DNA of 55,907 nt from NCBI RefSeq assembly GCF_001186125.1, contig NW_014040262.1, forward strand, positions 14,567 to 70,473, in the 5' to 3' direction. Below, in pieces: positions 30,801 to 55,700 of the stretch. Source of the DNA: Sphaeroforma arctica JP610 (lineage: Eukaryota). The notes below the pieces were generated by a model. The model was not told the origin of the DNA. It saw only the letters and a list, made by a program, of their open reading frames with translations, and searched no databases. Made by a program: the position numbers and the translations under genes. Within the stretch, counting starts at the first letter, position 1. Every line of letters starts with the position of its first letter.

Positions 30801-33800
30801 ATAGTACCACCCAAGTGGGACAGTATAACTGTACACATGTACACAATACTACACACATAAATACTGGCATATGTACAATGCGGTGTCTTCCGTGTAGGGC
30901 ACAGTGTTGGACGCAATGTAAGTTTGTATCAGTGAAAGTGACAAGTCAATCACATAGATGCACGCTAAAACACATCTCTATACTGATATACTATTCGAAC
31001 ATACCGCAGCGAAAGAATCGTTAAGGAGATCGGAGGTATCTAGTAGCTCGGGATGGGCCAGCACTTCGTAAATGGGTACCCATTTACTGGTTTCTTTTAC
31101 TCTGACGTACTGCGGGGTATGAGTACGCAGCCGTAACATCAGATACATTTATCATATAGAACATCGTTTAAGTAAATGTATATATTTGGATTTATCACTA
31201 CAAGCGCAATTGGGTCATTAAACTTGCTATTACAAGTACATTTGCAATTTTAAATTTATTTCGGTATACTGATAGGTTGGCAATGGGACCTCGTAACGGA
31301 GAGACACACACGGTGAAATGTAATATTATCACATACAACTATGTATATGCTTCTATATCTCATCAATCACATATGACAGCAAATCTTATATGATTGCCGT
31401 GCAGAGTGCATAAATGCCTATTCGCGATCTATCAGACATGTTCTATTGGTGATTGAAAAATTGGGCATCTCAAGATTGAATAATATTAACTCGGGCTTCC
31501 CACGAAACTATACGAGCGTAGCAGATCCAGCATAATTATTAGTAAATCAGTGGGCTAAGCGCATCCAAGAGTCTCCATTTGCATCTAAACCACATGCTTA
31601 CCTCGTTGAAAGCACTACACAGCCGAGTGGTGTCCATCTGGTCGTATGTGTTCTTGAAGGAGATCGATGCGAGATTTTCAGATTTCCGGAATTCGTTGTA
31701 CCAGAACTCCTTGACGTTGGTTGCAAGTGTAGCAAAGTATTGGCATGAATGAAATCAGATAGTGTCGAATTCGAATATTGGAAGGCAACATAAATCCCAC
31801 TTATTCATTTTCAGTGTCGTATGTACCAGTAGAATATCGAAATTCATATCATAAACGGAGGCGATCTAACAAGCTCCCTATTCTATCTAATTGCTATAAA
31901 GTTTGTCGCCACTAATAATATACTGATTGCCAAATTGCCAATATACGATACCGTGAACAATCTGCTATTTGCTTCCTCTATGTTTTAATCCACAAACAGG
32001 TACGTGGTGTATATACAATAATCTTACGTTATTAATATATCCATACGCAAATTTGGCTCAAACTGAATGTATGTAAAAGGTTTTCAATGCATTCCTACAA
32101 TCACATTCAAAACATAGCCAACGCTCAACAATTTAACTGTAGCTGCATAGTTTAAAAGAATACTACACTTGTACGCCAATCATGGCATAAAATACGACAT
32201 GTATGTATGTATGTATGTATGTATGTGTGTGTGTGTCTGTGTGTGTGTATGTATGCATATATGTATGTTTGTATGTATGTATGTATATATGTATGTTTGT
32301 ACGTATATATGTATGTAGGTATGTATGTATGTATGTATGTATGTACGTATATATGTACGTATGTATGTATGTATACATGTATGTATGTATGCGTGTTAGT
32401 ATGTATGTATGTATCTATGTATCTATGTATCTATGTATCTATGTAGCTATGTATCTATTTACGTATATATACATGTATATATGTATGTATGTATGTAAGT
32501 ATGTATGTATGTATATATGTATATATGTATCTATGTATGTATCTATGTATGTTTGTATGTATGTATGTATGTATGTATGTATGTATGTATGTACGTACGC
32601 ATGTATGTATGTATGTATGTATGTATATGAGCATACCTACATCCAACACTATTGAATATACTAATATCGTGGATACATAGTATGAGCGCACAACTTACCT
32701 TGGAGTCATGGTATTCATCGCAGCAAGCCCTGCACACCGTGACGTCATTCTGCCAGATCTCTCCGAAAGTGTCCAAAAGTGTCGTGTTCTGTAGTGGCAC
32801 GCATCTGTGGGCGAGGAGTAGTTGGTGCATCATCTACATCCAAGCCAAACAACATGCAGCAGCATTAGCACCCAGTGATTCGAAAAATTATGGCGGGGGA
32901 TGAGAACAGAGGAATTGGCCTGAACTTCCACAAAACTGCCCTTAAATTTGCCAAGTTATTCTTCTATATCTCATACTGTACTAGGTATTAGTTCGGATTG
33001 CTTTTTCGTACTATAGCCCAATTCGAAAGTTACGCATCTACACATTCCGTGGAAATATGCACAACCTTGAAACCGGGCCAATGCAGCAACTGAATGCTTA
33101 CTACACTTGCGATCATGACATGTAGAAGCATTGGGAGTTGAGTAAACCACTCCAGTGAACAGAATTTTTGATAGATCTAAATATGTCGTCGGTAGTATAG
33201 GACATGGATATAAAATATATGTGTGCTCGGCTACATGAAATAATGTTATACAAATATCATGATGTCGTATAACCATGTTATTTACCTCTGGTTGTGTGTG
33301 CCAGAGATGGTAGTCCTTGTCACCGCTAGTTCCGGGAGTTCCCCCCAAACCGCGCACATATTGCAACGCCTGCGTAAGGAATGTATCCCTCTTCGACCGG
33401 TCCCGGAACAAGGACCTGTAAAAGCGTTAATGACCATTCGGATTTAGGTTGTAAGTCTACATGTATGTGAATATTCACACAGCACCTCGATCAAATACAA
33501 ATACGCACTATTCCCATAGCACCTCAATGTAATACAAATACGCAGCATTCACACAGCACCGCAAACAAAATGGGAGTTAACAATTGTCGAAAAGTGTCCC
33601 ATACTCTGGAGGTATGACAACCAGCTCTTGAAAATAACAAATATTAAATGGCGCATTCTACATACCATATATGAGGGGGCAACAACGAGTTGGGCTGTTG
33701 TGGTATGTCATAATCAATGGCATCGAACTCGTCTTCCTGAAACACAAAATCGGCCAGATCACTATCCTCAGCACTAAATTCCGCAGCATCTTCCTGTAAG

Positions 33801-33844: not shown

Positions 33845-35307
33845 AATTTTCGGACTGATTCGTTGTCAAAATATGCATTCTAGGCTTAACGGCCATCTTG
33901 CATTTGCGCACTGTGGTTGAGGTATGATATCTATCTTAGCGGTGTGACACCTATGATGTTGTTTCCGCTCGTCGATTTTTATGTATTATGCAATCATTCT
34001 AACAAAGCTAAACACATATATTCGCCCATACACTAACGTTAATAAGTGGCACGTAATGAATACTAAATACATATCCCACACGAAAGCAGAAACGAAAGTT
34101 ACGAAACCCAGGCCACAAACCATAGCCTTTTCAAAAAATAATACCCCCAAACCCACAATCAATATCACCCAAAAGCCCGCCAAAATTGCCGTAGTTGTCA
34201 TCAATTATATCCACAGGTGCCGGATCAGTGTTTTTTATTTTATTAATTTAGGTTTTTTTTTCTTCCTAAAAACCTCTATATCCCTTTTGGCGGTCTCGAG
34301 ACTCGACTCTCGAATCTCGACTCTTCGTTAAATATTACTATAGTTTTGTTTATTTTTATTATATAAAAAAACAAAATTAATTTAAAAAAATCAAAAACAA
34401 ACCAAAATCAAAATAGGGTGGCTGGTCACTGGTGGCAAGCTCGTATTAAACGTTATGGGGGTACGGGATAGACGTATAACGTAAACGCATATTTATTTTT
34501 TAATATTAAAACGTTATAACGGTTGTAATGTGATCAGAAGGGCCTACCTAAGTTCTTTTATAGGTCTTGTTCGTATCGTTAACATGGTACACACTTAAAT
34601 GTTTAGACCCGCAAGTTGCACCTATGAGCATACAAAGGACTGCAATCGAAATATAAGTTGAACGTAAACGTATCTTTATTCGATTTATAAAAGTTTTAAC
34701 GGAACCCTGTTTGAGGTTAGCGGCACAGTCACAGACTCACAGAAGTCAGAAGACAATATATACTGATGAGGACCCTGTTCGAGTATGGGCTGAACGCTGT
34801 TGTAAGCTACAGTCCAACACCAAAGACCAAAAACCCTAAAACATCACTTCTATTTTCACCAGAGGTCTCTCTCAAACTAATCAAGACCAAGACGCCGATA
34901 CTTGGTCACTATTGATGCAGCTACAACATACACTCTCACAATATGCGGACATCTGGACAAGTGTTGTAAATCATAATCGGATCAGAAGATGGCCATCACT
35001 CCATCTTGGTACGTACATGCCATGCTGTTTAAAGTTAGGAATGTATGTCTGTGGATACATCTTAACCACTTCGGGTCGCGTATTTGATGGTAAAATTGCT
35101 TCTGCATCAGCCTTATTTTTGTGTAAGCGTTTGCGAAACTTCCTATTAAAGCCTTTAGCCCATCCTGATCATCAAATGCTGATGGTGGAAGATCATAGTG
35201 CGCTCCATCTCGTCCGTAGTTTAATATGTCATACCCTTAAACTTGTAAGACATAGGAGGTGTAGTAGCTTTGCGTGTGCGACGAAGGATGATCTCTGTCG
35301 TAGGAAT

Positions 35308-36330
35308 TCAATGTGACCCGATATTTAAGGCAGTATAGCCGTCAACGCTGTTAACTTCATACGTTCCGCTCTTCTTGTCCGCCACGGAGATCATAAATGA
35401 TCCAATATGTTTAGCCGTAAGCACAGTTTTATCGGAGTTGCGAGCCAATGTTTTCACTAAATCGCATACCTCAAACTCAACTATTTTCTTGGTATCATTC
35501 CATCGCTTTTGTCTCTTCTTGAGAGCAATGTCCTTCATCTCTCTTAAGCAAGGATAGACCACATTTCTGGTCCGACGCATCTTCTCTAACCATGGTAACA
35601 CATGATCATCTTGAGACTCCTTGTTGAAGAGGATATGTAATTCACTATAACGGTCCCGGAAGTAGTAAGCGGGTAATGTACCAATGACTGAATCAGGGGA
35701 TTCGTTCATCTGTGTCTGTACCTCAATGTTTTTAGTGCTTCTCGCATGAACTCCTTCATCTTTCTGTGTCGTACCTCGTTCGCACCTTGTGTCTGAGGCT
35801 TTTAAGGTACCCCCATCTTATGGCATGATCCCGCAATGAGTAACAGCGTCGTCATGACATCTCCTGTAAACTCACTACCGTTGTCGGAACATAAAATAGC
35901 TGGCCAGCCGAAATCTGCGAAGTACTTATATATGCACTCATCCACAGTTTGTGTCGATTTATCTTTCAGCGGATACAATACATTATATCTTGATGCGACA
36001 TCAAACACGTGATATACATATTTATCCTTCGAGTGTCCGGACGTGGGTAGCTCAACCAAATCAATGATAACTCGGCGCCACGGCTCGTCTTCTGATACGC
36101 TGCGTAAAGGTGCGTATCCGTAGCGCTTGATCCGGTTAACTTCGCAGTTGTTACTTTTGTGATACACCTGAGATATATATTGCTTGAGGTTCAGCTGTAC
36201 GATTCCGTGCCTCTTACAATCTTTCTCAGTTCTAACCTTATACATGTGCTTAAGAGCATGATTTTGTCTTAACCACTTCAGAATCGCCTCCTGTGATTTA
36301 CTTGTTACATTGAAATCAGGAGGTGAGGAT
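35308..36330 (-). pseudogene. Retroviral-type DDE integrase (rve) with degenerate N-terminal zinc-binding region
   Basis: H..KH...NNCEVNRIKRYGYAPLRSVSEDEPWRRVIIDLVELP..YVYHVFDVASRYNVLYPLKDKS..FADFGWPAILCSDNGSEF..P*KPQTQGANE. Continues in ORF 35308-35709; stop at 35802-35804. Confidence 0.95.
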
Positions 36331-36649
36331 TCCACCGCGTCATCACCTGGACTCGAAGACTCGTCTTGTCCAATCTCGCCTAAAGTTTCTACATCGTGAA
36401 TCCGATTAATGTTTGATCTATTCATTAGTTGAGTTTTTGCTTGGTATGCAGTTTCCCTGTCAGACCGTATTTTGTTGTAGAAGTCTTTCGCTAGTGTTGC
36501 GCTCCTCTTTGATTCCTTTGAATTTGCTGTATCTCGGTAACACATACTGCAGGTGCTTGTGTTGTCCCAGTCTCTGATTGAGACTTAGGATTCAAGAGTG
36601 GAATCTTGGATCCCTCAACCTTCTGTTTGAAGGTCTCGGATGGTGTCCG

Positions 36650-36955
36650 CTAGATTGTTCCAACTGGACCTATTCGACATATTATAGTATGTCGCCAAGG
36701 TGTCTTTTGGACTGCACGGGTACCCTGGTAGAGAAAAGTATCTACCTTTCTATCCACATAGATCAGCTCATATTGTATCATTGAGATCAACTGTGGTAGC
36801 CATTTATCTGAGTGTCTTAGGGGACAACACAACGTGATGGTAGCATCTTGAATATGTACATAATTTAGCATCTGTGGTATTAATAGCCATGGAGGATTTG
36901 CCCAGGCATTCTCGTTCGACAAGTCTATCTGGAATCCGTCTCCTTTCGGATGCTT
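36650..36955 (-). pseudogene. C-terminal half of a DIRS-type N6-adenine DNA methyltransferase domain
   Basis: KHPKGDGFQIDLSNENAWANPPWLLIPQMLNYVHIQDATITLCCPLRHSDKWLPQLISM fits the DIRS MT pattern DAF..W....YANPPW.LI..VL.......TL..P.W....W.P.L. Catalytic NPPW at 36887-36898. Confidence 0.88.
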
Positions 36956-37714
36956 CTAGTACTCCACATTCACAACTAATAACCCACCTACACGGACAGA
37001 TTACTCCTACTACCTCAGTACCTTTATACGAATATACCGATTATCTCAGAGTCTAGGGAGCACCACTGAAAAAGTATTATTCTTACGAAAGTCGAGGCAG
37101 GCTTTGAACCCGCAGGTGCAGGCAAGCAAAGTTTACACCCTCTCAGACGAGTAGGAAATACTTACACTCAGGGTGTAAGATCGCATTATATGGTGAATGT
37201 AGTTAAAGCCGGTAGCACTACTGTGAAAATGAGATTATGATACGAATAATTTCTGGGAGCATGTGGTGATCCTTCTAGGACTACTCTTCTCTAGTGTATC
37301 TAAGACTTATTATATCCTCAAGGGACTGACCAGAGAGTTATACACCCTATCTTGGTGGGATGAGAGACCGTATTTTAGTTAACTATAGCTTCGCTCCTAC
37401 CTCGCTACGCATATAATTGTGATTTATAAAAGCCATCTGGATCTCTTGACCCCTCCGTAATATATAGATGTCTTAGGTAGCACAAAAAGGTAACAGAGAT
37501 AATGGCCAAATGGGTGACCGATTCATTATTTTGGTATAAACTAAGAAGCTCAAGTTTCGGTTATCCACTTGTCCTATGGTTTAAATAACCAAATGTTACA
37601 CCAAGTTTAACTTATTTGTACACAGAGGTCGACATACCTAGGGGGAGGGAAGGCTGTACCACTGAACTATAAATGTCCCACACAACTTTTTGATAGATTA
37701 AAAGAGGAATCGTA

Positions 37715-39354
37715 GATCCGCTAAGGGATCATCTTTTACATCCCTTCGGGATGGTAGATCTCGGAGAGATCGTACATCCCTCGGGATGTACCATTAACCC
37801 TTACCAATCAAATTAGAGTATCTCTGTATAATGGAAGGGGTCCCCCCTCTCATAGGNNNNNNNNNNNNNNNNNNNNNNNNNNNNNNNNNNNNNNNNNNNN
37901 NNNNNNNNNNNNNNNNNNNNNNNNNNNNNNNNNNNNNNNNNNNNNNNNNNNNNNNNNNNNNNNNNNNNNNNNNNNNNNNNNNNNNNNNNNNNNNNNNNNN
38001 NNNNNNNNNNNNNNNNNNNNNNNNNNNNNNNNNNNNNNNNNNNNNNNNNNNNNNNNNNNNNNNNNNNNNNNNNNNNNNNNNNNNNNNNNNNNNNNNNNNN
38101 NNNNNNNNNNNNNNNNNNNNNNNNNNNNNNNNNNNNNNNNNNNNNNNNNNNNNNNNNNNNNNNNNNNNNNNNNNNNNNNNNNNNNNNNNNNNNNNNNNNN
38201 NNNNNNNNNNNNNNNNNNNNNNNNNNNNNNNNNNNNNNNNNNNNNNNNNNNNNNNNNNNNNNNNNNNNNNNNNNNNNNNNNNNNNNNNNNNNNNNNNNNN
38301 NNNNNNNNNNNNNNNNNNNNNNNNNNNNNNNNNNNNNNNNNNNNNNNNNNNNNNNNNNNNNNNNNNNNNNNNNNNNNNNNNNNNNNNNNNNNNNNNNNNN
38401 NNNNNNNNNNNNNNNNNNNNNNNNNNNNNNNNNNNNNNNNNNNNNNNNNNNNNNNNNNNNNNNNNNNNNNNNNNNNNNNNNNNNNNNNNNNNNNNNNNNN
38501 NNNNNNNNNNNNNNNNNNNNNNNNNNNNNNNNNNNNNNNNNNNNNNNNNNNNNNNNNNNNNNNNNNNNNNNNNNNNNNNNNNNNNNNNNNNNNNNNNNNN
38601 NNNNNNNNNNNNNNNNNNNNNNNNNNNNNNNNNNNNNNNNNNNNNNNNNNNNNNNNNNNNNNNNNNNNNNNNNNNNNNNNNNNNNNNNNNNNNNNNNNNN
38701 NNNNNNNNNNNNNNNNNNNNNNNNNNNNNNGGGAGATCACTCGTAGAGTGATCGTACATCCCCCGGGATGGTGGAGGGTCCCTCCCCGGGTTCTGGGGAG
38801 GCGGCCCTTCGGGGTTCCGTAGTTTTAGGTGGGACACCCTTATAATATATCCTACACCTTCGGTACCTCGTCTCCTAGTAGGGGGTATTTTACTCATCTT
38901 GCTACCACTCTCCCTCTCTACCCCAATTTCATTTATGTTACCTATCTCTCGTAGGGATACCCCTGCGGGGTCATCTTTATATCTCGGCCACCACCCCTGC
39001 CTAAAAGGGAGGGTCTCCTGAATAAGCTCGCGGGGCTTACATTCGCAGGTGTTGGCTGTACTCCTTTCTCAACTATGATATCTCATGTAGCATATCTCTC
39101 TTGACTAACCCCCTTAACGTTTCCGGTTTAGCTGGACGCATAAACTATCGTCTCATGCCGTGTAAAGGAGTGGCCCCAGTATATCCTTATATCTCTAAGC
39201 AACACGATACTACCCCAATAAATTTAAATCCCGTGGGTACTCCGAAGGAGGGAGAGAGCGTGTACACATGCACACACACATAGGAGGGTCACCACCCCCC
39301 ACCATGTACGGACCATCCCCTCGGGAAGCTTGTGCACCCCGAGGGATGTACCAT
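37715..39354. repeat. Cluster of GC-rich mini-hairpins (many with C-GNA-G triloops) flanking the assembly gap
   Basis: catccc-ttc-gggatg 37739-37753, gatctc-gga-gagatc 37757-37771, gtacatccc-tc-gggatgtac 37772-37791, gatcactc-gta-gagtgatc 38735-38753, acccc-tgc-ggggt ~38959-38971, ctcc-gaa-ggag 39240-39250. Confidence 0.8.
37857..38730. other. Assembly gap (874 N)
   Basis: Run of N characters. Confidence 1.
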
Positions 39355-40664
39355 GGAATTGAACCTATATCTCTGTTTTTATAATCTCTTTTACTTATCT
39401 CTCTTCTTAGAATCTCATCTCAGTTTATTATTCGTACGGGGTTAGTAGACCTATAAATATGTGTCCCATGAAATACTCACTTATCCACACTCATACATAC
39501 ATCTAACTCATACCACCCACAGAGGATTGGATATCCTATCTCCACTTTTATGTATGGCAACATGTCTCTGTCCTATCGTCTTCCCCATCCAATCTACACC
39601 TCAATAGTTTGAAGGTATTTCTTTTTAGGTATGCTGTGAGGTAAGTTACGAGAGGTGTGTGGCCGGTAGTATGAGATTGACTGTACCTAGACAATTATTT
39701 CTTCTCTGTAATAAGAGTATATAGCCCCTTTATTCCTATATATTTTTCCCTCTATAACTACCATATGGTTATAATTGTACCCCTAGAGATTAGCTAAGAT
39801 ATCACCACTCACATATCATCCTGTACTGTAATATGGTATACCCTTGATACCAAGTAGGCTTGGAGAAGATTATCTAACCCAATTATTCAGGAGGGAGATT
39901 AGTCTCTTACTGCGCTGACTTCTGGTTGACACTTGACTCAACTACGTTAGTCTCTCATTCAACTACTTCACTTGATTGAAGAATGGTTGGGCAGGGTTAT
40001 TTCTTCCGTCGATAAGGATACATTGCTTTATAATAGTTATCCTCTTTATCAAATGGGACACACTTGTAGAGATATACCACAGACATCATTATACACTCCT
40101 ATTGAATACTACTTATATCCTTCACTACAGCTACCCACCCACACTAATTACAGTAATATCACTATGCTTTACCTAAGGTCTCCATACCTTTAGCCCCGTG
40201 TTAAGTTGATTAAAACATTATCGGACTTTATGGTCATTCTATATTCACCATTGGCAATAGCTATGGTTTGACTACTCCCTAACCTTCCCCTATGATATCA
40301 TCTCCCCACACCACTATGTACATAACCCCATTACCACCCTCTACCCCCTCTTCATAGTGTATCACTGACATACCAGGAGTATTTACTATCACCCATCATA
40401 CATAAGTTATCCCAAATGGCTACGAGAGTTAGGTGAGCATATAAGATTTATATACCACTATTCATAAGCTAATGTAGATACATTCACCCTGCCTAAAAAT
40501 GAAGGTGGCCTGGTAGTTATTTATCCCATCTCTCCACCACCGATATCTATTCTAGTAGCTTCCTTACATTATAAGCACATCTATTACCCCTGTTAGCCAC
40601 TGACCCATTCCCTTCCACTTTATCCTCTTAAAAATTTTCTACGAAGCTCATCCACTTATAAGGT

Positions 40665-40780
40665 TCCAGTGTCCAGTACCTCGGCAGTTGTGCATTATGA
40701 TGAGCGGCAAACATTTCTATGGTAAGTGGTCCATGTATGTTGTCTGCGATCTAAAACCACCTAGGATTGGCCATCCAATC
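40665..40780 (-). pseudogene. N-terminal half of the DIRS-type N6-adenine methyltransferase domain, in frame with RNase H
   Basis: Reading through the TAG at 40751-40753 gives DWMANPRWF*IADNIHGPLTIEMFAAHHNAQLPRYWTLE. This matches the DIRS MT pattern EW.L.P..F..I...WGP..IDLFAS..NAQLPRY. Confidence 0.88.
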
Positions 40781-40799
40781 CGTAGCTAGTAACTCCCTA

Positions 40800-41015
40800 A
40801 CCATCTTGTTTAAGTCTGGTCCGAAACGAGACAACATGTCGGGTAAGTGATTGTAAATACCCGGTATGTGTGTTATGCCGAAAGAAAATTTTGCGATCGT
40901 GTCATGCCACCGACTGACTAACTGTGAATTAGGTTTCTTGTCCTTTAGGTGTTGCAATGACTTCTGATCACATAGCACGTTAAATTGTGTGCTATATAGA
41001 TAGTCCGTAAAAATG
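40800..41015 (-). pseudogene. C-terminal part of Ty3/Gypsy RNase H
   Basis: FTDYLYSTQFNVLCDQKSLQHLKDKKPNSQLVSRWHDTIAKFSFGITHIPGIYNHLPDMLSR. The N-terminal part is missing (internal deletion near 41015-41030). Confidence 0.92.
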
Positions 41016-41029
41016 AGTGAGTGGGCTGA

Positions 41030-42216
41030 ATCTCGTTATCACCGAAGTGACATTTCTTACTGTTGACCTTAAAGTTGTGCTTGTTGAGTCTGTCTAGAAC
41101 CTCTCGCACAACCTTGTCGTGCTCCTCTTTGGTTTTGGTGAATACCACAATGTCATCAATGTATACTTGTACATTGTCCATGTCCCTAAACAAGTCTTGC
41201 ATAATTTGTTGAAAGAACGCAGGTAGCATGTGTAACCCAAAGGGGGCACCTTTGAACGAATATTGCTGACCCTCCCAGGTAAAGGTGAAATACTTCCGGT
41301 ATGGTTTGTAGATCTTCATCTGGTGGTAGCCCTGCTTCAGGTCGATAGTGGATAATATCTTAGCTCCCTCCATGCACCTGAGCAGTTCGTTTATCCTTGG
41401 TAAGTGGATATTGTGTGTCGGTATCAAAGTATTAATTGGGCTCATATCCAAACACACCCGAACTTTCTTCAGCGTCGCGTCAGAGTTGAATTGGTCGACG
41501 GCTAAAAGCGCTAGGTTGACGGGAGTCGGCTCATAGTTGACTGCGATCACTCCGTCATCTAACCATGCTTTAACCTGTTCTCGTACGACCTGCTCATGAC
41601 GCCATGGAACATAGTTACGTGTAGGACACTTCAGCTTCGAGAAATCTACTCTCATCAGGTCTAGACTAACGTATCCGTTATTGAATTTGAACTTAGCCCA
41701 GTCAGTGATCCGAATCTTGACATTCTCGAAAATCAAGTCCTTGACTTTCTCTGTAAAGTGAGGGATCATCTCCTTCACAGTCTTCGAAGGTTTATATACC
41801 GGTTTCAACAAGTTGTCGTCTGACTGATCCTTCTGTGGTTCAATGTTAGTAGGTAACCCTGTAATTGTGATACCTAATGACAATAAATCACCCATACCGA
41901 CTATGAGATCATAGTCTGGTGAAGTGTTACATATGACTGAATTAGTAACTGTAGTACGTTGGTCTGTCAATGTAAACCTAAGATCGATTGCCATTTCTCT
42001 GCAAGTGATCTCTCTTTCATCAGCCAGTTTCAACATAGTTGGCTCTGGCTTACGAGTTATGTCTGTCATTTTACAGAATCTAGAGGATATACATGAAATT
42101 TGCGAGCCCGGATCTAACAACGCTTTTATTTCATGTCCGTTAACTCGTATGTCAAGGATTATATGCTCGTCTTGAGGTGCGTCCTTTTGTCTTAGTGACA
42201 AGACCCGGTATGTTTG
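41030..42216 (-). pseudogene. pol: Aspartic protease + reverse transcriptase (Ty3/Gypsy type)
   Basis: IRVNGHEIKALLDPGSQISCIS..YDLIVGMGDL (retropepsin). VRVCLD..LPRINELL..GAKILSTIDLKQGYHQ..APFGL..PAFFQ..VYIDDIVVF..EEH..VLDRL..KKCHF (RT). ORF 40945-42201. Confidence 0.97.
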
Positions 42217-44944
42217 TCACTTAACTTCAACTTTTGGTTTCACCTTGCATGTATGCTTGTGGTAACCTCCAGTCCCGGTACAGTCGGCTCACTTCTCGAT
42301 AAAGTGCTTCCACTTTTCTTCGTGCCTTCCATTCCATCTGCCATTCGGCTCATGTTGGGTCATTCGCCAATTGCAATCAGTCTCACTACAGTTCTTGACC
42401 TCCCTATGCCTGGACTTAGGGTTGCCTGCCGGCGGTCCACTTCTGTTAGTCTGGTTATCCTTAGGGATGACATTGATCTTGTTGCCTTCAGAACCATTTA
42501 TATTTTTGTTCTTATTGCCACCCTTGTCAGCCCCTTTGTGTACCTTCTGACCTCCATTAGTGGACTGAGAGTCTCGACCATTGCTTGATCTTCCGGTAAG
42601 ATTGCCGCTGACCTTCTTCTGCGCATTAGTGACTTTCACCACGGAACTAGGGCGTTTGGTAAACGTCTGATCCGCTCTCGAGTAAAATTCAGCTCAGGTT
42701 AATTCCGCTAGCTTAGGTACCTCGATGGAGATCTCTCGTACCTTGTCCGGGTAAGATTGATGCATATCGGCGTACAGAATCTCTTGATCACTCCTATGTA
42801 GGTTTGACCAAAAGATTGTCTGTACCCATAGTACACACATGGATAGCTTGTCAGGTGACATCTCCTGAGTCTGGGCCCGTGACATGTGTGTGTCCAACTC
42901 TAATAAGTAGTGGGACACCGGCGTTCCTTCTTCCGGTGGTATCATGATCGATACAAGCAATTCTGGTCGAGGGTCCGTCGAAAATAAGTAGACGATCATC
43001 TCACTCTGCTCTTTCCACGTTTTCAGCTTAGTGATCGCTTGTTTCGCATTCTCTAACTTGTTATACTTGTAGCATAATCTGTCCAAACTCTTTCAAAGGC
43101 CTAGATAACAACGCCAGACTGCTAGTATCAATTGGATCCTTCCGGTCCTGTCGATCAGATCTGTATGTCGTTGGTAGTTTACCTATGTCCTTTACAAACT
43201 TCTTGCCTTCCACAGCCTTCTCGGTCTGAATCACTCTTAGTTTTGAATCAATCTTAGTCTGGAGGTGCGTAGCCATTGTCATATAAGGACTAGCGGCATC
43301 AATCCTACCTAGATCCATTGCCTCGAGTGAAGCTGCCTCAGCCTTGTTCATTTGAACAGTGAATTCAGCAATTTTTAGATCACTACTAGAGTGATCTGAT
43401 ACCTTCTTTTCTAACTGCATCTGACTATGCAGTCAGTTGTCTGCCTCATCCTTTGATCCATCACCTGTTCAATGTGAATGAACGCTTCTGATGGGACAAC
43501 ATCTTTTGTCGTCGTTGGGATAGTCGCTGGGGGCGAACTGCCTCCAGATGACGACAAAGATTTTCTAGCTTCCACCTGATCAGGTTTAGGCTCTTCGGTC
43601 GGTTTATCCTTCGGAAATACCTCTGGGGCACTCTGTGGATTTCTTCCGGTGGAGGATTTGGATTAGGCTCGCTCCTGTTCAGATGCCCTTCGCGACATCG
43701 CTGTTGCGTCCAATCCAGGAGAAGATTGAGCTTCGGATGAAGAAGATCGGATTCATTTGCCCCTCCATTGTCTGACAACATCTCAAACGCCAATATGGCT
43801 TGATAGAGTGCCAAATGGTTTGATATCAAGTCGGGAATGTCTCCAAGAAGATCCCGAATTGCGTACCAAATTAAGTGTGCAAAACTTCCATCGCCCCTAG
43901 TTCCGAATACCTTCGGTAGTATCTTTTGAAACTGACGGAAAAGTTTGCGTGCTTGCTTACCTTCGTCAGTTTTCATTGATATTAGCCGATTGTAGTATTT
44001 AGAATCCCTAAACAAATCATACCCAAACTTTCTTACCGCTGCATTCATCACATACCTCGGTGAGATGGTACCATCCGGTTTGGTCTTCATTACTTCTGGA
44101 AAGTACGTTCCATACGTATTTCAAAACACCCATGCCCTGTTGGCCCGCTGTCGGATTAACTCTCGTTGACCCTCCTCCTGGATACCAATTTGAGTCTGGT
44201 ATGGATGGCCCAGATCAAAGTTCTGTCGCCAAGCTGGTCGAAGTGGTGTTTTGGGTAAGCGCAGGAATTGTGAGTGCAACCTGGTTTCCGAATCGTCGTC
44301 CTGATGGTGAAGTGTATGGTCCACATCATCCGGACCTATATCCACGAAACGCAGTTGTTCTTCCGTTACGTTGATTTGCGATTGATCCAACAGTCTTTAT
44401 GCTATTGGCTCATCCTCCGAGTCATGCTCCTCTGATCCACCATGATATTGATCCTTCGCTGCGGCTTGCTTTTTCTTCCGCTGCTTAGTAGGTCTCAATT
44501 CATGTACCATTGGTTGGTAGCCCTTCAGGAAGGCTCTCCTATCCCTTGCTATCATATGATAAGTAGGATCTCTCCTACGTGCTGTACACGTGTCTACTGG
44601 TGGGGATGATACATCTGATTCCAGTGCATGTCGCACTTCCTCTGAAGTTAAATTGTCCGAGGATTGCGTTTTCTCGGCTTTACTCTTTCGAGATTTCGCC
44701 TTCTTCGCGAGTGGCTTCTGTGACAACGTAGTCACATTACCTCCGGATGCACCTACACCCGAGTCAACCAACTTCTTACGTTTCCGTTTAGTCAGAGTTG
44801 GTGCCGGTTGTACCGGCGTGATCTCAGTTGCTTCAGCTTCTACTGATGGTGCCGGGGTGTTTTTTGCTTTTCTCCGCCTACAGTAAACCTTTTCACGTTT
44901 GTAATTTTAGCTACATTCGCTGCCTTATTTTTTCTTTTCGTCAT
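42217..44944 (-). pseudogene. Fragmented ORF1 (gag-like, ~900 codons) of the Gypsy element
   Basis: Chain of minus-strand ORF pieces (44397-44771, 44121-44390, 43461-44090, 43061-43420, 42694-43086, 42289-42642) from ATG 44944. It ends in EK*ADCTGTGGYHKHTC (possible CCHC knuckle) in frame with pol. Confidence 0.7.
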
Positions 44945-45349
44945 AATATCGATAGCGTATTGTAAACATAAAAATACGTAAAACTCGGTCTCCTCTAGGC
45001 TGACTATACGATACCAAGACGTTTACGTTAATACTAAGTTTAGCTTCAGCCCTTGGTAATGAGCAAAAGATTAGGGGATTTTAGACTGAGACTATTGTCT
45101 ATATGCTCCGCTCTAATCACTCACTACTTCGGTCTAGATTTATTTATGTTTTAGTTACTAGGACAGGATATCATTTCATTGGACGCATAGTTTACATTTC
45201 ACGCCTCGAAACAATTACCTATTCAAACTAACCAACAAAATATCTCCAAGTCCAACTTAAGAAAATTAAAATTAAAATAAAAACACCAAATCGGTGCAGT
45301 ATACATCTGCACCTAAACCCCCACTTGGTACCTAGCTCTCCATCCCATT

Positions 45350-45720
45350 TAAGGCATAGACGGGCACATCTAGTTGGCTGGCTAGGAGGAATCAAAACCA
45401 TGTTGTCCTAAATTCTAACTACTCTGATTCTGTCCTTTATCTTGCTCTGATATTACTATCGAATTACACCATAGGCTTGTGCCAAAAACCATTTCATGCC
45501 TGAGACCCTCTCTCATGGTACTCCCGTTAATTAGAGATTCCCAAAGTGTCATTTTCAGATGTCAGATTGGTGTCGTTCCTATACTGTGTACAATTCTAAT
45601 TTCAGTGGAAGACCCAATCTATAGTTGGAAAACCACCTAATTATCCACAGTAGAGTCCCATACTCCACTGAGTACTATCACATGTTCAGAATCTTGAATA
45701 TCTCAGTTCTTGTTCATGTC
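45350..45720 (-). mobile_element. 3' fragment of a Penelope-like element (GIY-YIG relic + 3' region)
   Basis: 45355-45400 is a diverged inverted copy of 50025-50068 (gcacatct[a/g]gttggctg). Minus-strand relics include RF.EH, DSTV and PTIDW. Confidence 0.5.
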
Positions 45721-45839
45721 CAATTCGTTAAACGCATTCCTTTATTTTATAAATATAAACGTTATTACGTTATACATTTGTAATATACGTTAACTGTGCA
45801 ACTACTATTAGGGATAATAATATTTATTTCAAAAATGGC

Positions 45840-46870
45840 AAGTATGTATGATACAATGTATGAACATATGGTATGGCTCTCATAGTCGCTGTAGTGGTTC
45901 AGGAAAGATTGATGGGAAGAAGTGGTCAGTAAATTCCCGTTTGATGCTTAGGCCAAGTGAGTCGACAATGGAAGATATGTGCTGAGTCAATTCGGGCCGG
46001 TGTTGACAAAACACTGTTACTATCGAATGTTCCATATATTCGCTTGCTGACTTACTAAGTAGAGTACCCACCTCTGTGGTACGGATCGGGTCTGAGCCGT
46101 GTAGTGCCGCGGAATGGGTTAGTGCAGAGTACGAAATACCGAGAAGGACCAGGTTATCCGTCATAATCCGGTCGAGAAGGGAGGATGGGGGTAAGCCAAT
46201 GCCGCACCAGACCACGGATGAATTCGGTATTTGTTGGCTGGCCTGGATAGGAAGTATCATAGTCGGAACCAACAAGCACGATGATTTGGTTTGAACTGAT
46301 ATTTGGAAGTAGTACTTCAACAGCGTGATTAGCCGGGGTTTGGGGAACATCTGTTGATATGTCAGAGACGGGTGAGGGTACGGTGATTCTTCAACATGCT
46401 GGAGAAAAAATCCAAGGTGTTCGTGGAGGGTCCAGATACCGTGGAAGTCATGGCACTCATGTAATTGCTGAAGGAGGTCAGGGCCAATGGGCGGCAGTTT
46501 CGGGCCTACCAGGATGCGTCGAATCAATTGTTGGATGCAGGTAAAGTGGCTGGTAGTGAACTTGTGGCTACCGGGGCAGACAGGGCAGAGACAGCCATCG
46601 GTGCGGTAGTCGAACAATGTGAACATGTACGTATTCGTTACAATCATAGCACAGAGCCGGATTGGTGTAGGCTCGAGGTAGCGGTTGAAGCTGTCGTGTC
46701 TGGCCTTGTCACGGTTTGAGGTTAGCGGTTTACACATAACTAGTTGGTAGTAGTATTGGCGCCGGGCCATTGCCGCGATCTCCTTGTTGGACCATCGTTT
46801 TGTTGAGTTTGGTGGAGGGCTACATGGTCGGGTGTACGCCCGCCCGTGGTTTTGTGCACAGTTTTCAGGT
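45840..46870 (-). mobile_element. 5'-truncated non-LTR retrotransposon: ORF2 C-terminus with CCHC zinc finger plus extra ~200-aa domain
   Basis: Open 296-aa ORF 45880-46770 with CPVCPGSHKFTTSHFTC; CATA-rich tail after the stop. KARHDSFNRYLE resembles KFRLDSYNFSLQ (51622-51657) in the plus-strand LINE relic. Confidence 0.6.
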
Positions 46871-48752
46871 AAGCATAAATACTGTACGGGAAGCGCAGTT
46901 GATTCACCCTACAGTTTTCTACTTCTGAGAAGATATCTTACAATCTTACCCCTGGACAACAAATCAATACTACAGAATACAGCGAATGCACGATCGTTAT
47001 CACGATATCACGTCATTTACGAAAAATTATGTCACCTTTTGAATCTCTGCAAAATCGACCTTCACTCTTCGATAACGCAACCGTCCACAACGCTACAACC
47101 ACCGGACATACCTCATTGCCAATTGTATTCTCTCGACAACGTGCTCTTCCTGAATCTGCACCCCCATCCGTCTCCGTTACAGCTAGCCCAGATATGTTCG
47201 TTCAAGCACTTGTGCCATCAAACATTTACAAATCATAGCCACCGATTACACATACAGACATACGATGAATATCATGGACGGAATTGTTTTATCTCAACCG
47301 AACAATCACAATTTGTATGGCTGCTAAGGAATATCACTTACCTAAAAACTCACTTTCCGTTACTACTGAAGCGTAGCAACTCGACCCCGACGTTTGGTCC
47401 AAAGTTATGCAACATCTCAATTATAATAGCTCCACAACTGACTATTTTGCTTCATCAAAGAATACGCTACTCCTACGCCTCGCCGGCCCTGAAGGAGGTG
47501 AATTTCGCTGCTTTCGCCACAAAGGTTCTTTAATCTATTAAACGAGTGGGCTTATGGAAACCCTAGTTGATCCCTCAATTATGAGTGGAAAAAGATTGGC
47601 GTACAATGTGGAACAACTATCGCTATTATTGTTCCACTGCGCCCTTGCACAAAATGTTGCAACGTTTTTCTCTCGAATCTTCAACGTCAGCCGTACATCG
47701 TCCGCAACACAGCGAAAACGTTTCGTCAACATGGCACCACTAGTATGTTCAAACCTCCTTGGGCAAATTTATTATTTGCCCTCCGTGGACTTCTTCGCAC
47801 TGCTGTCACTTTGGGTTCGACACTTCAGACTGCATCACACTTGATAAGACTGACCCAGAATTAGCACACAAAGCGCTGCAATGTCTGTCCCGAGGTCAAG
47901 ATAGGCGAAAAGAATATAGTATCAGACTTCTGACAGCGTCACTGGACCTGCCGAACGTTTTCATATTGACATTCAGGTTCCTATGCCTTGGAACCAAACA
48001 TGGCCTCCATTTTAATTGGCAAGACCTCATTAACATACCCGGCTGTATACCCGAACTAGTACATTAAATTTCAGCCCACTATAAACCGTACACCAATATG
48101 GGTTTTTAGGTGAATGATTGGTGAATGGCTGAACCAACCAACCAATACTACAAAGCCACGCACATTATGAAAGCACTCCAGTTTACTACACAACCTACTC
48201 TATTAATTGAGCAGGATGTGAGCACAACCAACACTTTAATTACTACCCGGAGCATGACGGCCAACCAGACACAATATCTGATTTCCCTGAAATTCGAAAC
48301 TCGGGCAATATATCAAAACATCTGCTCAGATATAAGCATCTCTAAGGTGAGTATCCCAGGTGACGAAATAGTCATAGTACTTTCCGCACTTTCTACAACT
48401 TCCACATCTACTCATCCAGAGCAAATATCGCTTCTATAAAGTATGTTGACCAAAACGTGAACATAGTCAATACTCTAATTACTACTCGAATCATGGCTGC
48501 GCGCCAAGATACACCGCCTGAGATCCCCTCAGAAGTAGAGATCTCAGGATTTACAGCAACTGCCCAGTCACCAAAATAACTTCACAACAAGTATTATCAA
48601 GTGACGAAATGGACACTGCACTTTCCACACCTACACAATCAGAGTCAACACTGCTTACGCGCGTACCTATAACCTTACCATAGTGTTTTGTCAAGACCGT
48701 GTCCAATCAGGAAAATCGGCGTTTACCGTCTACTGACTCTCCAGGCAAAGCC

Positions 48753-49173
48753 AAATAGTCACAAGAGATGGCTATCACACACAAAATACACCCAAACTCA
48801 TGAATAATAAATAGTTCTGAGAGTGGTTTATGTCACGTTCTGACGCAAAATTTCCGTGGACTCAATGAACATAATGCACCAACACTCGAGCACGCTAAAG
48901 GAACCTATAACTTTATTATTATAGCGGAATGCTGGTACAACCCCTCAATCAACCGTAGACTCTAAATAGTTACAAGATATGGCTATCACACACAAAATAC
49001 ACCCAAACTCATTAGTAATAAATAGTTCTAAGAGTGGTTTATGTCACGTTCTGACGCAAAATTACCGTGGACTCAATGAACATAATGCACCAACACTCGA
49101 GGCACGCTAAAGGAACCTATATCTTTATTATTATAACGGAATGCTGGTACAACCCTTCAATCAACCGTAGACT
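48753..49173 (+). repeat. Tandem duplication of about 210 bp covering the APE start (48753-48961, 48964-49173)
   Basis: Two near-identical copies from aaatagt.acaaga to ccgtagact. The second copy has a 1-bp insertion (ctcgaggcac vs ctcgagcac). Confidence 0.95.
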
Positions 49174-49539: not shown

Positions 49540-50110
49540 TCGGTAGCGAGATGGCTCAACCGAACATAGGTTTCTAAGGACTATTAGCGTTGCTTAGTTT
49601 ATCTTGGTCGAAGAAGGGAGACCGGTTGTAGACAGGTAGTGACTATACTCTGCGGACAGATAGCTACTCTCCCCGGAGGGGTCAAGAGATCCAGATGGCG
49701 TTTATAAATCACACTTGATCTGCAGGGGTGTGAATAATGACCTTCATGTGGGGAAGACTAAGGTTATACCAGTAGTCTACTGGGTAAAATGTAAGGGGAT
49801 GCTGGCGGTAGCTGACTTATTGATCCCTCCAGCCATATGGATGACCATTTATCTATTCGTAGTGCTCCCTGAGTAGTATCTTTATAGATAGACCAGTCAT
49901 ATCTCAATTCACACGGTATCTGGGATTCAATTACCTACTCACAAGTGAGAGTAGAGAGATGAAATAATGAGTGGTGGCCTGGGCCCCGGAAATCTTAGGT
50001 TTCAAAGGACTATTAGCGTTGCTTTGTTTATCCTCCGTTCAGCCAACCAGATGTGCCAGTCTGATGAAGGCTAAGTCGGTAATTCTTGATAAGTGGCAAG
50101 CTATTGGTTA
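49540..50110 (+). mobile_element. Penelope-like element 3' end / pseudo-LTR (GIY-YIG relic, 37-bp direct repeat, hammerhead relic)
   Basis: DGVYKSHLICRGVNNDLHVGKTK (49694-49762; GVY...C...YVG.T) and YLNS..SGIQLP (~49900-49940). Direct repeat 49567-49603 / 49996-50032; CTGATGA core at 50061. Confidence 0.65.
50045..50109 (+). ncRNA. Degenerate type I hammerhead ribozyme (PLE-associated)
   Basis: Stem I tgccagt/agtggca plus aacca/tggtt, core CTGATGA, stem II ggc-taa-gtc. The GAAA box reads GGTAA, so it is probably inactive. Confidence 0.5.
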
Positions 50111-52754: not shown

Positions 52755-55700
52755 CTATTTGCACAGAGCGAGCATGATCTTTTCAAAATCGCCCCCGATC
52801 TCGCCTTTAATATCCTTTGCCAAATCCGTCTTGTACGCCTGTTTATAGCTGAGCTTAATGTCCTCCATATCGACCTCTGCGCGCGTGACCATGACACGGA
52901 TCAGTGTGGGCTCGGTGGTCCCTATGCCGTCCATTGACTTGTGCAGAACACTGGCGAAGAAGTACGGTCCATTCACGCCAAAGCGCACAATCGACTTCAG
53001 CAGCCTGTGGCAGAACAATACCGTATTTATAATTATGAGTGTTCTGTCTATATGGGTACATTTAGATGTACTTCAGCTATTTTCTATCTACAGTGTACTC
53101 ATTGACCATTCTACCTAGTCTAGCTTTACGGATGTAGAATCAAAATTGGTCTGTTTGTGAGAACTAAGCGCACTTCTTAGGCTCATCATCTAACCAGGCC
53201 ATTCATACATATAGTGACAGGCTGATTCTATTCGACAACCAAATTATGCAAAGCGAATAGGTTGCTATCACAAACAGCACAACACATTCAACTGAAGTCG
53301 TATCAAATAAACATACTTTCGGATATCACCGCTGAACTCGCGATCAATGCTGGCCTCCAGTGTGTACTTGGGACATAGTTTGAGGTATTCTTGCGCAATC
53401 AGAGTGATTTGCAGGGGACTCGCAAAGCACAAAACGTTGATGAACGTCTGCTCATCTGTGCCCGTTTTACCCTCTCCCGCCTTGAACAAGCGAGTAGCCT
53501 CGGCTAAGGCCGTTTGCTGGTCTGTGCGTATAGCATAAGCGATGGTTTAAGCATGGTGGCATCATACGATGGGTTGCCTAGCTGTCACTGTCAAAATGTA
53601 TTTCTACAAGAAATCAAGTACAACATAGAGCAGCATCAACCAATGGCATCTAGGAGACGAGTTGGCAGTTATCACTGTTAAAGTGCTTTGGATATGAATC
53701 AGAAGTTAAAAAAAAATGTGTTTTTCGTTGCTAGACATGATTTTTGTGTTGTATGCCGTATGAGTTCCGTAGGAAATGAACACATATGACTATCAATAGA
53801 TGGCATCTCAGAAGCAGCCGTTTCGTGATGAAAATTGTGTGTCGGGAACGAAGGAAATGCACGAGCATGTTCATCCTACGTCGAGGCTGCTATCAGGAGG
53901 AACAACGTTCGCCTGCTACTTCAGAGCGACTAATATCACTGACAACCGTTGTAGTACTTCCAAGGTCCACCCGACCGCTGACATGATAGTGCGTGATACA
54001 ACTGACTGTCTTTACGTCTTTACTTTAATCACACAGGTACGGATGAGATGCAAGGTGAACACTAAACTCACAAAAGGAAATCAGACATTGATACACAGGA
54101 ACGCAAACGATAAACACGTGATCGTGGTTACCATAAGGGTTTTAGGGTTTTATAAAACCCTAAGCGACCTGAAAGCACATGCAATGTATACATCAACAAA
54201 CGAAATCATGCCCGCATAAAAAGTATGAACATGACTTTTATGTGCGGCAAACGAACGGCACAGGGCTGCGAATTCTTGTACGATCGCACAACACAAACCA
54301 GACGATTATTGATCTATACCCATTTGAACACAACTCCGCACTCACACACATACACACACCTGCCGGTTTCGCGAAGGTGTGCTTGCGTTGATTTGTGTCC
54401 AGCAAAGCAACACACGCTTTCTCGAAGTGTCCAGAGGTGTCCTTTTTTATTTCCGAGTCCAAATTCTTCTTGTGCACTATATATACAAATACATGAAAGG
54501 TGTGAATTTTGTATAGTGCAAAATCTTCATACTGACCCTGCAATATGCAATATAAGCAGCTTGTGCATTTATAGAAGTGCTGGCAGTGTACGTGGAAGCT
54601 GCCAAACAGACTATAGAAGTTGAGGTTTTCCTAAACCCTAAACCCTAAAAGCATAGATTCTTTTCGAAGTTTTGTTCAGCACCTATCAGCCGCGATACAT
54701 GCCTCGATGCAGTATGTGGATTGGAATGTTCATTGTGACGTGTGGGCGGTGTGCGCTAGTATACTGTCAAACGTGATGAGTAGACATTGCACAAGGGTTT
54801 ACTGCCATCTGTGCAAGTTTGATAACATGTACGAATACGCCTGCTTGCTACAGGTGCCCCAGCTTATTATTCTCTAGTATTCTGCTGCGCTGTTGGCATA
54901 TGTACAGGGGATGCGAGCGTGTTGGTAATAGTCGAGAACAAGAGTAGATGGCTAATCTATCAACTAGACCGAGGCCAACATCCGGATACAATAGCTAGGC
55001 ATCCAAAAGAAAGAACTCGTACAAATGACAATGAGCACACCTCTTAGGTATTCGGCTTTGATCTTCTCCAGTTCAACTGGGCTGCGAGTGGCTAAGATTT
55101 CAATAATGTCCTCTTCTGCGGTACCCGCCCCCTGCATTGCATTTCGATATACACAATAGAATACAGTCATTGATGTGTCGTTCATGCCACTGACTAGTAC
55201 AGATAGTAGGTCGCTCGCAATCCTAACAAATGGTTTTGATCGTTTGAACTTCTCACGAAGAATGAGCTGACAGTATAGCTGAGCTACAGGGTAACCAGAG
55301 AAAGAGATATATACATACAATATTCTTTTTCAAATTCAAATGTACATATATCACTTGCGTCGTACGTATGCTTTGTGCCATATAAACATCGTGTGCTTGA
55401 CTCTTACACATACATCGATTGCTTTGTAGAGTGTTTTTGCATCGTATCCAGCCGGTGTCATCATCATGGCCTTGAGTGTCTCCCAAAACCCGCCGGAAGT
55501 TTCCGACCGCAAGTCCTTCTCAAGATTGCGCCCCACAACATTAGTGGCATATGTGGCCTTGATCTGCTGGCGTTGTGCGTTGGTGCGATTACATAGCACG
55601 TGGATAAGGGCCTTCTCGTCCGTACCTGGAAACAAAAGTACACATGAATAGGGATATAATACTTCGTGATTATAATGAGACGCACAGATGCTACTGACTA

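Follow-up and report, generated by a model that had tools for sequence, protein, structure and literature searches.

A Dam-like methyltransferase domain in the Pol of a dead Ty3/Gypsy copy from Sphaeroforma arctica

The locus analysed here raises the question of whether an adenine methyltransferase domain belongs to the Pol of a Ty3/Gypsy element and, if so, on what it would act. The window, that is, the whole stretch of 55,907 nucleotides from Sphaeroforma arctica JP610 (contig NW_014040262.1, positions 14,567 to 70,473), carries a broken Pol on its minus strand, where all the peptides quoted in an earlier note were found upon translation. That note had proposed a Ty3/Gypsy Pol with a Dam-like methyltransferase between RNase H and a DDE integrase, an order that was confirmed by Pfam, by tblastn and by intact relatives with a single open reading frame (ORF). 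Overall, the locus is very probably a dead copy of a repeated S. arctica Ty3/Gypsy family bearing a Dam-like domain in Pol.

All the parts of the element were placed on the minus strand. The aspartyl protease (41893..42153; Pfam Asp_protease_2, E 5e-6) is followed by a reverse transcriptase (RT) of the Ty3/Gypsy type (41026..41556; RVT_1, E 4e-27), typed also by its top PDB match and by the tree described below, and by a C-terminal remnant of RNase H (40820..41011; RT_RNaseH profile positions 64-105, E 3.7e-5, and tblastn). The methyltransferase appears in two halves, namely an N-half with the SAM-binding motif and one in-frame stop (40663..40789), corresponding to residues 583-622 of the intact relative P0002, and a C-half with the NPPW motif (36653..36951), assigned by alignment and by 74% identity to P0002. 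The integrase (35256..36320; rve E 1.6e-11, and tblastn) comprises a zinc-finger region, the DDE core and the C-terminal domain, with one stop and one frameshift. In terms of reading frames, protease and RVT_1 were detected by Pfam in 40948-42216 and rve in 35805-36584, and the C-terminal half of RNase H was recovered from 40631-41035 when one stop was read through. The Ty3/Gypsy order PR-RT-RH-IN with a DDE integrase is present, RNase H having lost a part in the window copy, and no tyrosine recombinase was matched in the window ORFs scanned, protease and rve being found instead. The C-half of the methyltransferase (36653-36955) had no Pfam or PHROG match by itself, and its search returned P0002 as the one match among 15 candidates.

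Upstream of Pol, a broken Gag-like region was assigned to 42217..43432 because of where it lies and of a cluster of Cys and His residues close to its end, and further broken reading frames at 43464..44906, with contig depth as high as over pol, may represent an accessory ORF or a long Gag N-terminus; neither region had a Pfam match. A probable 5′ LTR or leader would occupy 44970..45740, as the summed contig depth remained high until ~45740 and then dropped. In particular, contig depth was far above the flanks from ~35100-35150 to ~45740, and its sum over pol (~60,000-130,000, compared with ~170 in the flanks, in run X1) indicates a repeat, not a copy number. An LTR pair of the pol copy was not found, a low-stringency blastn against the 3′ flank giving a single 42-nt match of 81%, and the ApT and CpG ratios showed no clear difference between pol and flanks. 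Another, more abundant repeat lies at ~45870-46900, beyond the depth edge of the pol family, and an intron-split annexin gene is located at 52758-55671, one exon of which is 100% identical to a protein of Sphaeroforma arctica, an ichthyosporean protist.

The damage of this copy was mapped by tblastn with P0002, whose residues 4-351 were placed at 42069-41026, 509-622 at 41011-40670, 625-782 at 36952-36527 and 896-1327 at 36320-35088. Thus, at 41026/41011 a deletion has removed ~157 codons for the RT thumb/connection and for the N-terminal portion of RNase H. Moreover, an unclassified insertion of 3.7 kb (36952..40662) splits the methyltransferase, one stop and one frameshift occupy the junction between methyltransferase and integrase, and the integrase carries another of each. 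At the stop behind the methyltransferase, most of the contig depth in all four runs compared differs from the window copy, and the acidic residue of the SAM motif is E in the window copy vs. D in the 19 of 19 clade relatives spanning the site. With a deletion, a split domain, stops and frameshifts, the copy is dead, as the earlier note had stated; it is unable to function, and only intact copies could act. The insertion itself is a mixture of low-copy repeats and DNA at single-copy depth, in which neither an LTR pair nor a terminal inverted repeat was found and four ORFs tested by Pfam gave no match.

An N gap of 874 bases (37857-38730) lies inside the insertion, so that the methyltransferase halves sit on two scaffolded contigs. 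As the halves flank this gap, they might derive from a one-off nested DIRS fragment or from a scaffolding error joining two unrelated elements, a reading that is nonetheless highly improbable: the two match adjoining stretches of a single intact protein, P0002 (residues 622/625), and contigs from other copies join position 36951 to 40663 (two contigs in run X1 and one in run X4, both runs from one sample; the joint was not listed in runs X15 and X8). The view of the earlier note that the two halves belong together was upheld. Furthermore, intact PR-RT-RH-Dam-IN ORFs exist and the RT is not DIRS-like. For the family, nesting and mis-scaffolding are both refuted by the intact ORFs, the joined contigs and the non-DIRS RT.

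The intact relatives show the same architecture without interruption. P0002 is a 1376-aa polyprotein in which Pfam finds RT, RNase H, Dam (PF05869, E 7e-6), H2C2 and rve, while P0003 is an open close relative of 1400 aa, whose PF05869 match (E 8e-5) does not reach the gathering cut-off; among deeper relatives, E values for PF05869 go down to 4e-10. When the RNase H-Dam region of P0002 was used as a query, six proteins were retrieved among 656 candidates, and all five besides P0002 had RT, RNase H and Dam with the integrase behind. Of those, four matched rve, and for the fifth, P0007, the alignment extends across the integrase core. A methyltransferase linked to an integrase as well as to Gypsy RNase H, which the earlier note had set as a test, recurs in other copies and relatives. 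The assignment to the amino-methyltransferases, named there beforehand as a test, held too, given PF05869 in the intact relatives and PHROG_111 in six of the seven rows of the methyltransferase alignment. Searches with this alignment yielded no matches among PDB sequences, and none of the 56 pattern matches in metagenome contigs, nor of the 30 in viral contigs, was confirmed.

A wider set of relatives was obtained with a methyltransferase profile, which, at E<=0.001, matched 6,923 proteins out of 1.84 billion representatives; the top 150 of these were listed. The profile query was built from the window element's own clade, and the sample of relatives consequently leans towards that clade. The RT was matched in 76 rows, of which four short ones were dropped, and the resulting tree of 72 rows contains no named reference RTs. 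In this tree, the window RT groups with P0002 and P0003 (SH-aLRT 99), all within a clade of 15 rows (96) to which P0143 and P0144 of Abeoforma whisleri also belong, while 49 DIRS-like rows, labelled by architecture alone (RT-RH-MT at the protein end) and not by a recombinase gene, lie across a split supported at 99. In addition, Ty3 RT was the top PDB match of the window RT (E 7e-27) and also of P0003 (E 6e-63), and the RT falls outside the DIRS-like group, as the earlier note required. In a quick tree built from 95 methyltransferase domains, with deep forks that are without resolution, the same set as the RT clade was recovered (21 rows, support 96), and the A. whisleri proteins P0143-P0145 fall in the clade of the window element. 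Such agreement between the RT and methyltransferase trees is as expected from a single capture inherited with the RT.

Regarding what the domain does, we lean slightly towards a dead S. arctica Gypsy copy whose family's domain methylates adenines on its own new DNA, with insertions starting out under an active mark. The sequence conservation is relevant here, as identity between P0002 and four deep relatives was 44-46% in the methyltransferase, 40-45% in RT, 31-34% in RNase H, 28-30% in the integrase core and 8-16% in the linker. Of 20 clade members, 18 retain NPP, and the motif-I Asp is present in all 19 that cover it, which, across such deep divergence, is the picture given by a functional active site. 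The class I fold, the SAM-binding motif I and the (N/D/S)PP(Y/F/W) motif IV are all present in intact relatives, the window copy being split and having E for D. This conservation argues against a domain that is a non-catalytic SAM- or nucleic-acid-binding module of the same element, aiding reverse transcription, packaging or targeting. Such a module seems unlikely to us, even though open P0003 reads CPPW where P0002 has NPPW, inactivity has been proposed for DIRS1 copies (PMC4738411), and no 6mA was obtained from eukaryotic DAMs upon their expression in dam- E. coli (bioRxiv 10.64898/2026.05.21.726589).

An AlphaFold model of the domain of an intact relative (140 residues, seven sequences, pLDDT 77.6) matched class I adenine-N6 methyltransferases, with CAPAM/PCIF1 first both in Foldseek (E 7e-3) and in VIA (Z 7.6, rmsd 4.3 over 124 residues); in Foldseek, neither this model nor the model of the P0144 tail described below had any match at E<=0.001. 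A motif-I-like strand, DxFA, is conserved, and alignments of the 140-residue model with complete class I cores extend over 111-124 residues. These matches bear on the possibility, which we consider doubtful, that the domain of the same element would instead methylate RNA (its transcript, a cap-adjacent adenosine or the primer region) and thereby protect or license the genomic RNA. An RNA substrate would suit CAPAM as the top match in both structural searches, the match of the DIRS-like relative P0169 to PCIF1_WW (E 5e-4), the placement of the DIRS1 domains in the PCIF1 clade (PMC4738411), and the negative E. coli DNA assay, which it would explain. However, in VIA the Z of 7.6 of CAPAM is tied with other RNA methylases of class I, with M.TaqI (6.2) and T4 Dam (6.1) next; the sequence profiles PF05869 and PHROG_111 point to phage DNA methylases, and the DNA of DAM-LTRs is enriched in 6mA (bioRxiv 10.64898/2026.05.21.726589). 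The PCIF1-like fold of the model would nevertheless make RNA and RNA:DNA hybrids relevant candidate substrates.

In the slightly favoured reading, self-DNA methylation, the domain would be packaged with RT and integrase as a part of Pol and would reach the cDNA or RNA:DNA hybrid by proximity, an access suggested by its being part of a packaged Pol with no separate target-recognition domain. Adenines of the nascent cDNA or hybrid would then be methylated, seeding the host's active-chromatin mark, and host AMT1 would maintain 6mA after integration, as in the model of the preprint, in which the reverse-transcription intermediate is methylated and AMT1 takes over its maintenance (bioRxiv 10.64898/2026.05.21.726589). 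If true, an element writing the active adenine mark of its host on its own new copies would have a direct escape from silencing. The higher 6mA and expression of DAM-LTRs compared with other LTRs of S. arctica, reported in that preprint, are in line with this reading, but the enrichment is a correlation that host AMT1 alone could produce. The absence of 6mA in dam- E. coli, CPPW in P0003, RNA methylases as the top, weak structural matches and the likely inactivity of DIRS1 domains (PMC4738411) all weigh against methylation of the element's own DNA. P0002 (NPPW) and P0003 (CPPW) offer a natural difference in the catalytic motif between intact close relatives, suited to an assay.

The C-terminus of the element was also considered, as the main text of the preprint describes its Ichthyosporean DAM-LTR lineage as lacking chromodomains (bioRxiv 10.64898/2026.05.21.726589). 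Their absence is a matter of description, the lineage itself being delimited by its Dam tree. Pfam found no chromodomain in P0002, P0003 or P0144. From other Dam-Gypsy proteins, six chromodomains recognised by Pfam were combined into a profile, which matched the tails of 7 of the 11 full-length relatives in the clade (iE<2e-3), including that of A. whisleri P0144 (1.4e-6). The P0144 tail, modelled from clade-only rows (pLDDT 85), retrieved chromodomains in all Foldseek rows shown (HP1, MPP8, CBX and Rhino; probability 1.0, TM 0.6-0.8, E from 7e-3), and P0144 is thus predicted to end in a chromodomain fold. For the closest relatives, P0002 and P0003, the signal was fainter: their tails align at the same place as the chromodomains of relatives, with Phe instead of the central (cage) Trp and without the first aromatic residue, and they match Chromo clusters of the Atlas with a score of 0.91, a value of 0.9 being reached by 4-10 of 100 shuffles. 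Neither tail was detected in the first round of the profile; in the second, P0003 reached 6.7 bits (iE 0.044), compared with 5.2 for the highest of 200 shuffles, and P0002 again went undetected. These tails are probably degenerate chromodomains, the evidence being suggestive only, and group II chromodomains without a cage are described for retroelements of plants (PMC3350952). In the window, a frameshifted and partly deleted remnant collinear with them, a probable degenerate chromodomain with a basic tail, occupies 35088..35255. The chromodomain finding would amend the published description of the lineage.

Among 37 matches scanned by Pfam, chosen from the best 150 of the 6,923 mainly by length, three were Ty1/copia-type proteins carrying Dam: P0247, with the order gag, CCHC, Dam, protease and RVT_2, P0286, with the order gag, CCHC, protease, Dam and RVT_2, and the fragment P0225. 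The word 'copia' is absent from the main text of the preprint (bioRxiv 10.64898/2026.05.21.726589), whose supplements may cover such elements, and a literature search gave no related report of Dam in copia elements. These carriers widen the known range of Dam-bearing elements. Taken further, a wider single-capture clade may tentatively be imagined, though with rather low probability, that would include the ichthyosporean DAM-LTRs and was ancestrally both writer and reader. It would have combined a PCIF1-like methylase acting on RNA or an RNA:DNA intermediate in the particle with an overlooked short chromodomain, the cage having been lost and the targeting changed in the S. arctica family, and the same methylase would also have been captured by Ty1/copia.

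Concerning known systems, DAM domains of LTR elements other than DIRS were reported for the first time in May 2026, with five lineages defined, one of them being the 'Ichthyosporean DAM-LTR' lineage of Pirum gemmata, Abeoforma whisleri as well as Sphaeroforma arctica (bioRxiv 10.64898/2026.05.21.726589). The earlier note had assumed an undescribed architecture, which was mistaken, as that preprint had already described both the architecture and the active-mark idea in S. arctica; the dead copy of the window consequently adds little to them. What is added here is a correction on the chromodomain, the question of the substrate and a side finding on copia. Compared with the DIRS1 group, the window element shares a homologous Dam/PCIF1-like domain after RNase H, but it has a protease and a DDE integrase in place of a tyrosine recombinase, the domain is internal to Pol, and its RT is separated from the DIRS-like rows by the well-supported split mentioned above. 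Most full-length members of its clade resemble chromoviruses in a chromodomain-like module at the integrase C-terminus, a likeness judged from the tail and not from RT, whereas the tails of P0002 and P0003 lack the central Trp (Phe instead) and the first aromatic residue. PCIF1/CAPAM is the top structural match of the modelled domain, yet identity is 11-14% and the element domain has neither the WW nor the helical cap-binding domain. By host, architecture and grouping with the A. whisleri elements, the window copy belongs to the Ichthyosporean DAM-LTR lineage, with which it shares the S. arctica host, a Ty3/Gypsy RT, Dam in Pol and the NPP motif. It differs from the lineage as published in the predicted chromodomain of P0144 and the probable degenerate one of its family's intact relatives, and, while the preprint, from an alignment with prokaryotic DAMs, describes eukaryotic DAMs as devoid of the first catalytic segment, the window clade keeps the DxFA motif-I-like strand.

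The methyltransferase of the Gypsy copy in the window is split by an unclassified insertion at 36952-40662, which carried internal repeats of 25-35 nt on either side of its N gap and an inverted match of 43 nt (95% identity) to positions 49674-49716. Upstream of gag, at 43464-44906, broken reading frames of basic, low-complexity character were found, belonging to the same repeat family as the Gypsy element and without any match in a Pfam search. Moreover, a highly abundant repeat was observed at 45870-46900, with a summed depth about 10 times that of the Gypsy pol, whose stop-free frame on the minus strand (342 codons, His/Cys-rich) had no match in Pfam either.

As for the rest of the window, an intron-containing annexin gene, by which the host is identified as Sphaeroforma arctica, was present on the minus strand (52758-55671). 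Two long, Q-rich stop-free frames of 968 and 568 codons, with no match in a Pfam search, were located on the plus strand at 4143-8933, and this region harbours tandem repeats of 27 nt at about 4940-5310. Furthermore, a 23-nt minisatellite (19971-20246), a GTAT microsatellite array (32138-32650) and a tandem duplication of 210 nt with 95% identity (48753-49173) were present.

Among the database proteins related through the Dam domain, the DAM-LTR Pol of Abeoforma whisleri (P0144) had a short C-terminal chromodomain at residues about 1345-1398, supported by a custom HMM and a fold search, for which Pfam gave no match. Other combinations involving Dam were also seen: the polyproteins P0155 and P0184, together with the members P0297-P0299, combined protease-like, Exo_endo_phos, Dam, RT, RNase H and H2C2 domains, their RT forming a long branch of its own in the RT tree, while P0236 and P0268 were RNase H-Dam-Tudor fusions and P0193 was a dUTPase-Dam fusion.

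Finally, Ty1/copia-type polyproteins bearing a Dam domain with the NPP motif were observed outside the window, namely P0247, P0286 (with its member P0294) and P0225. Such polyproteins are not mentioned in the main text of the preprint describing the Ichthyosporean DAM-LTR lineage (bioRxiv 10.64898/2026.05.21.726589), nor were they found in literature searches. Their other domains were gag_2, CCHC, Pol_BBD, SH3 and RVT_2, and the position of Dam differed between them, preceding the protease in P0247 and following it in P0286.
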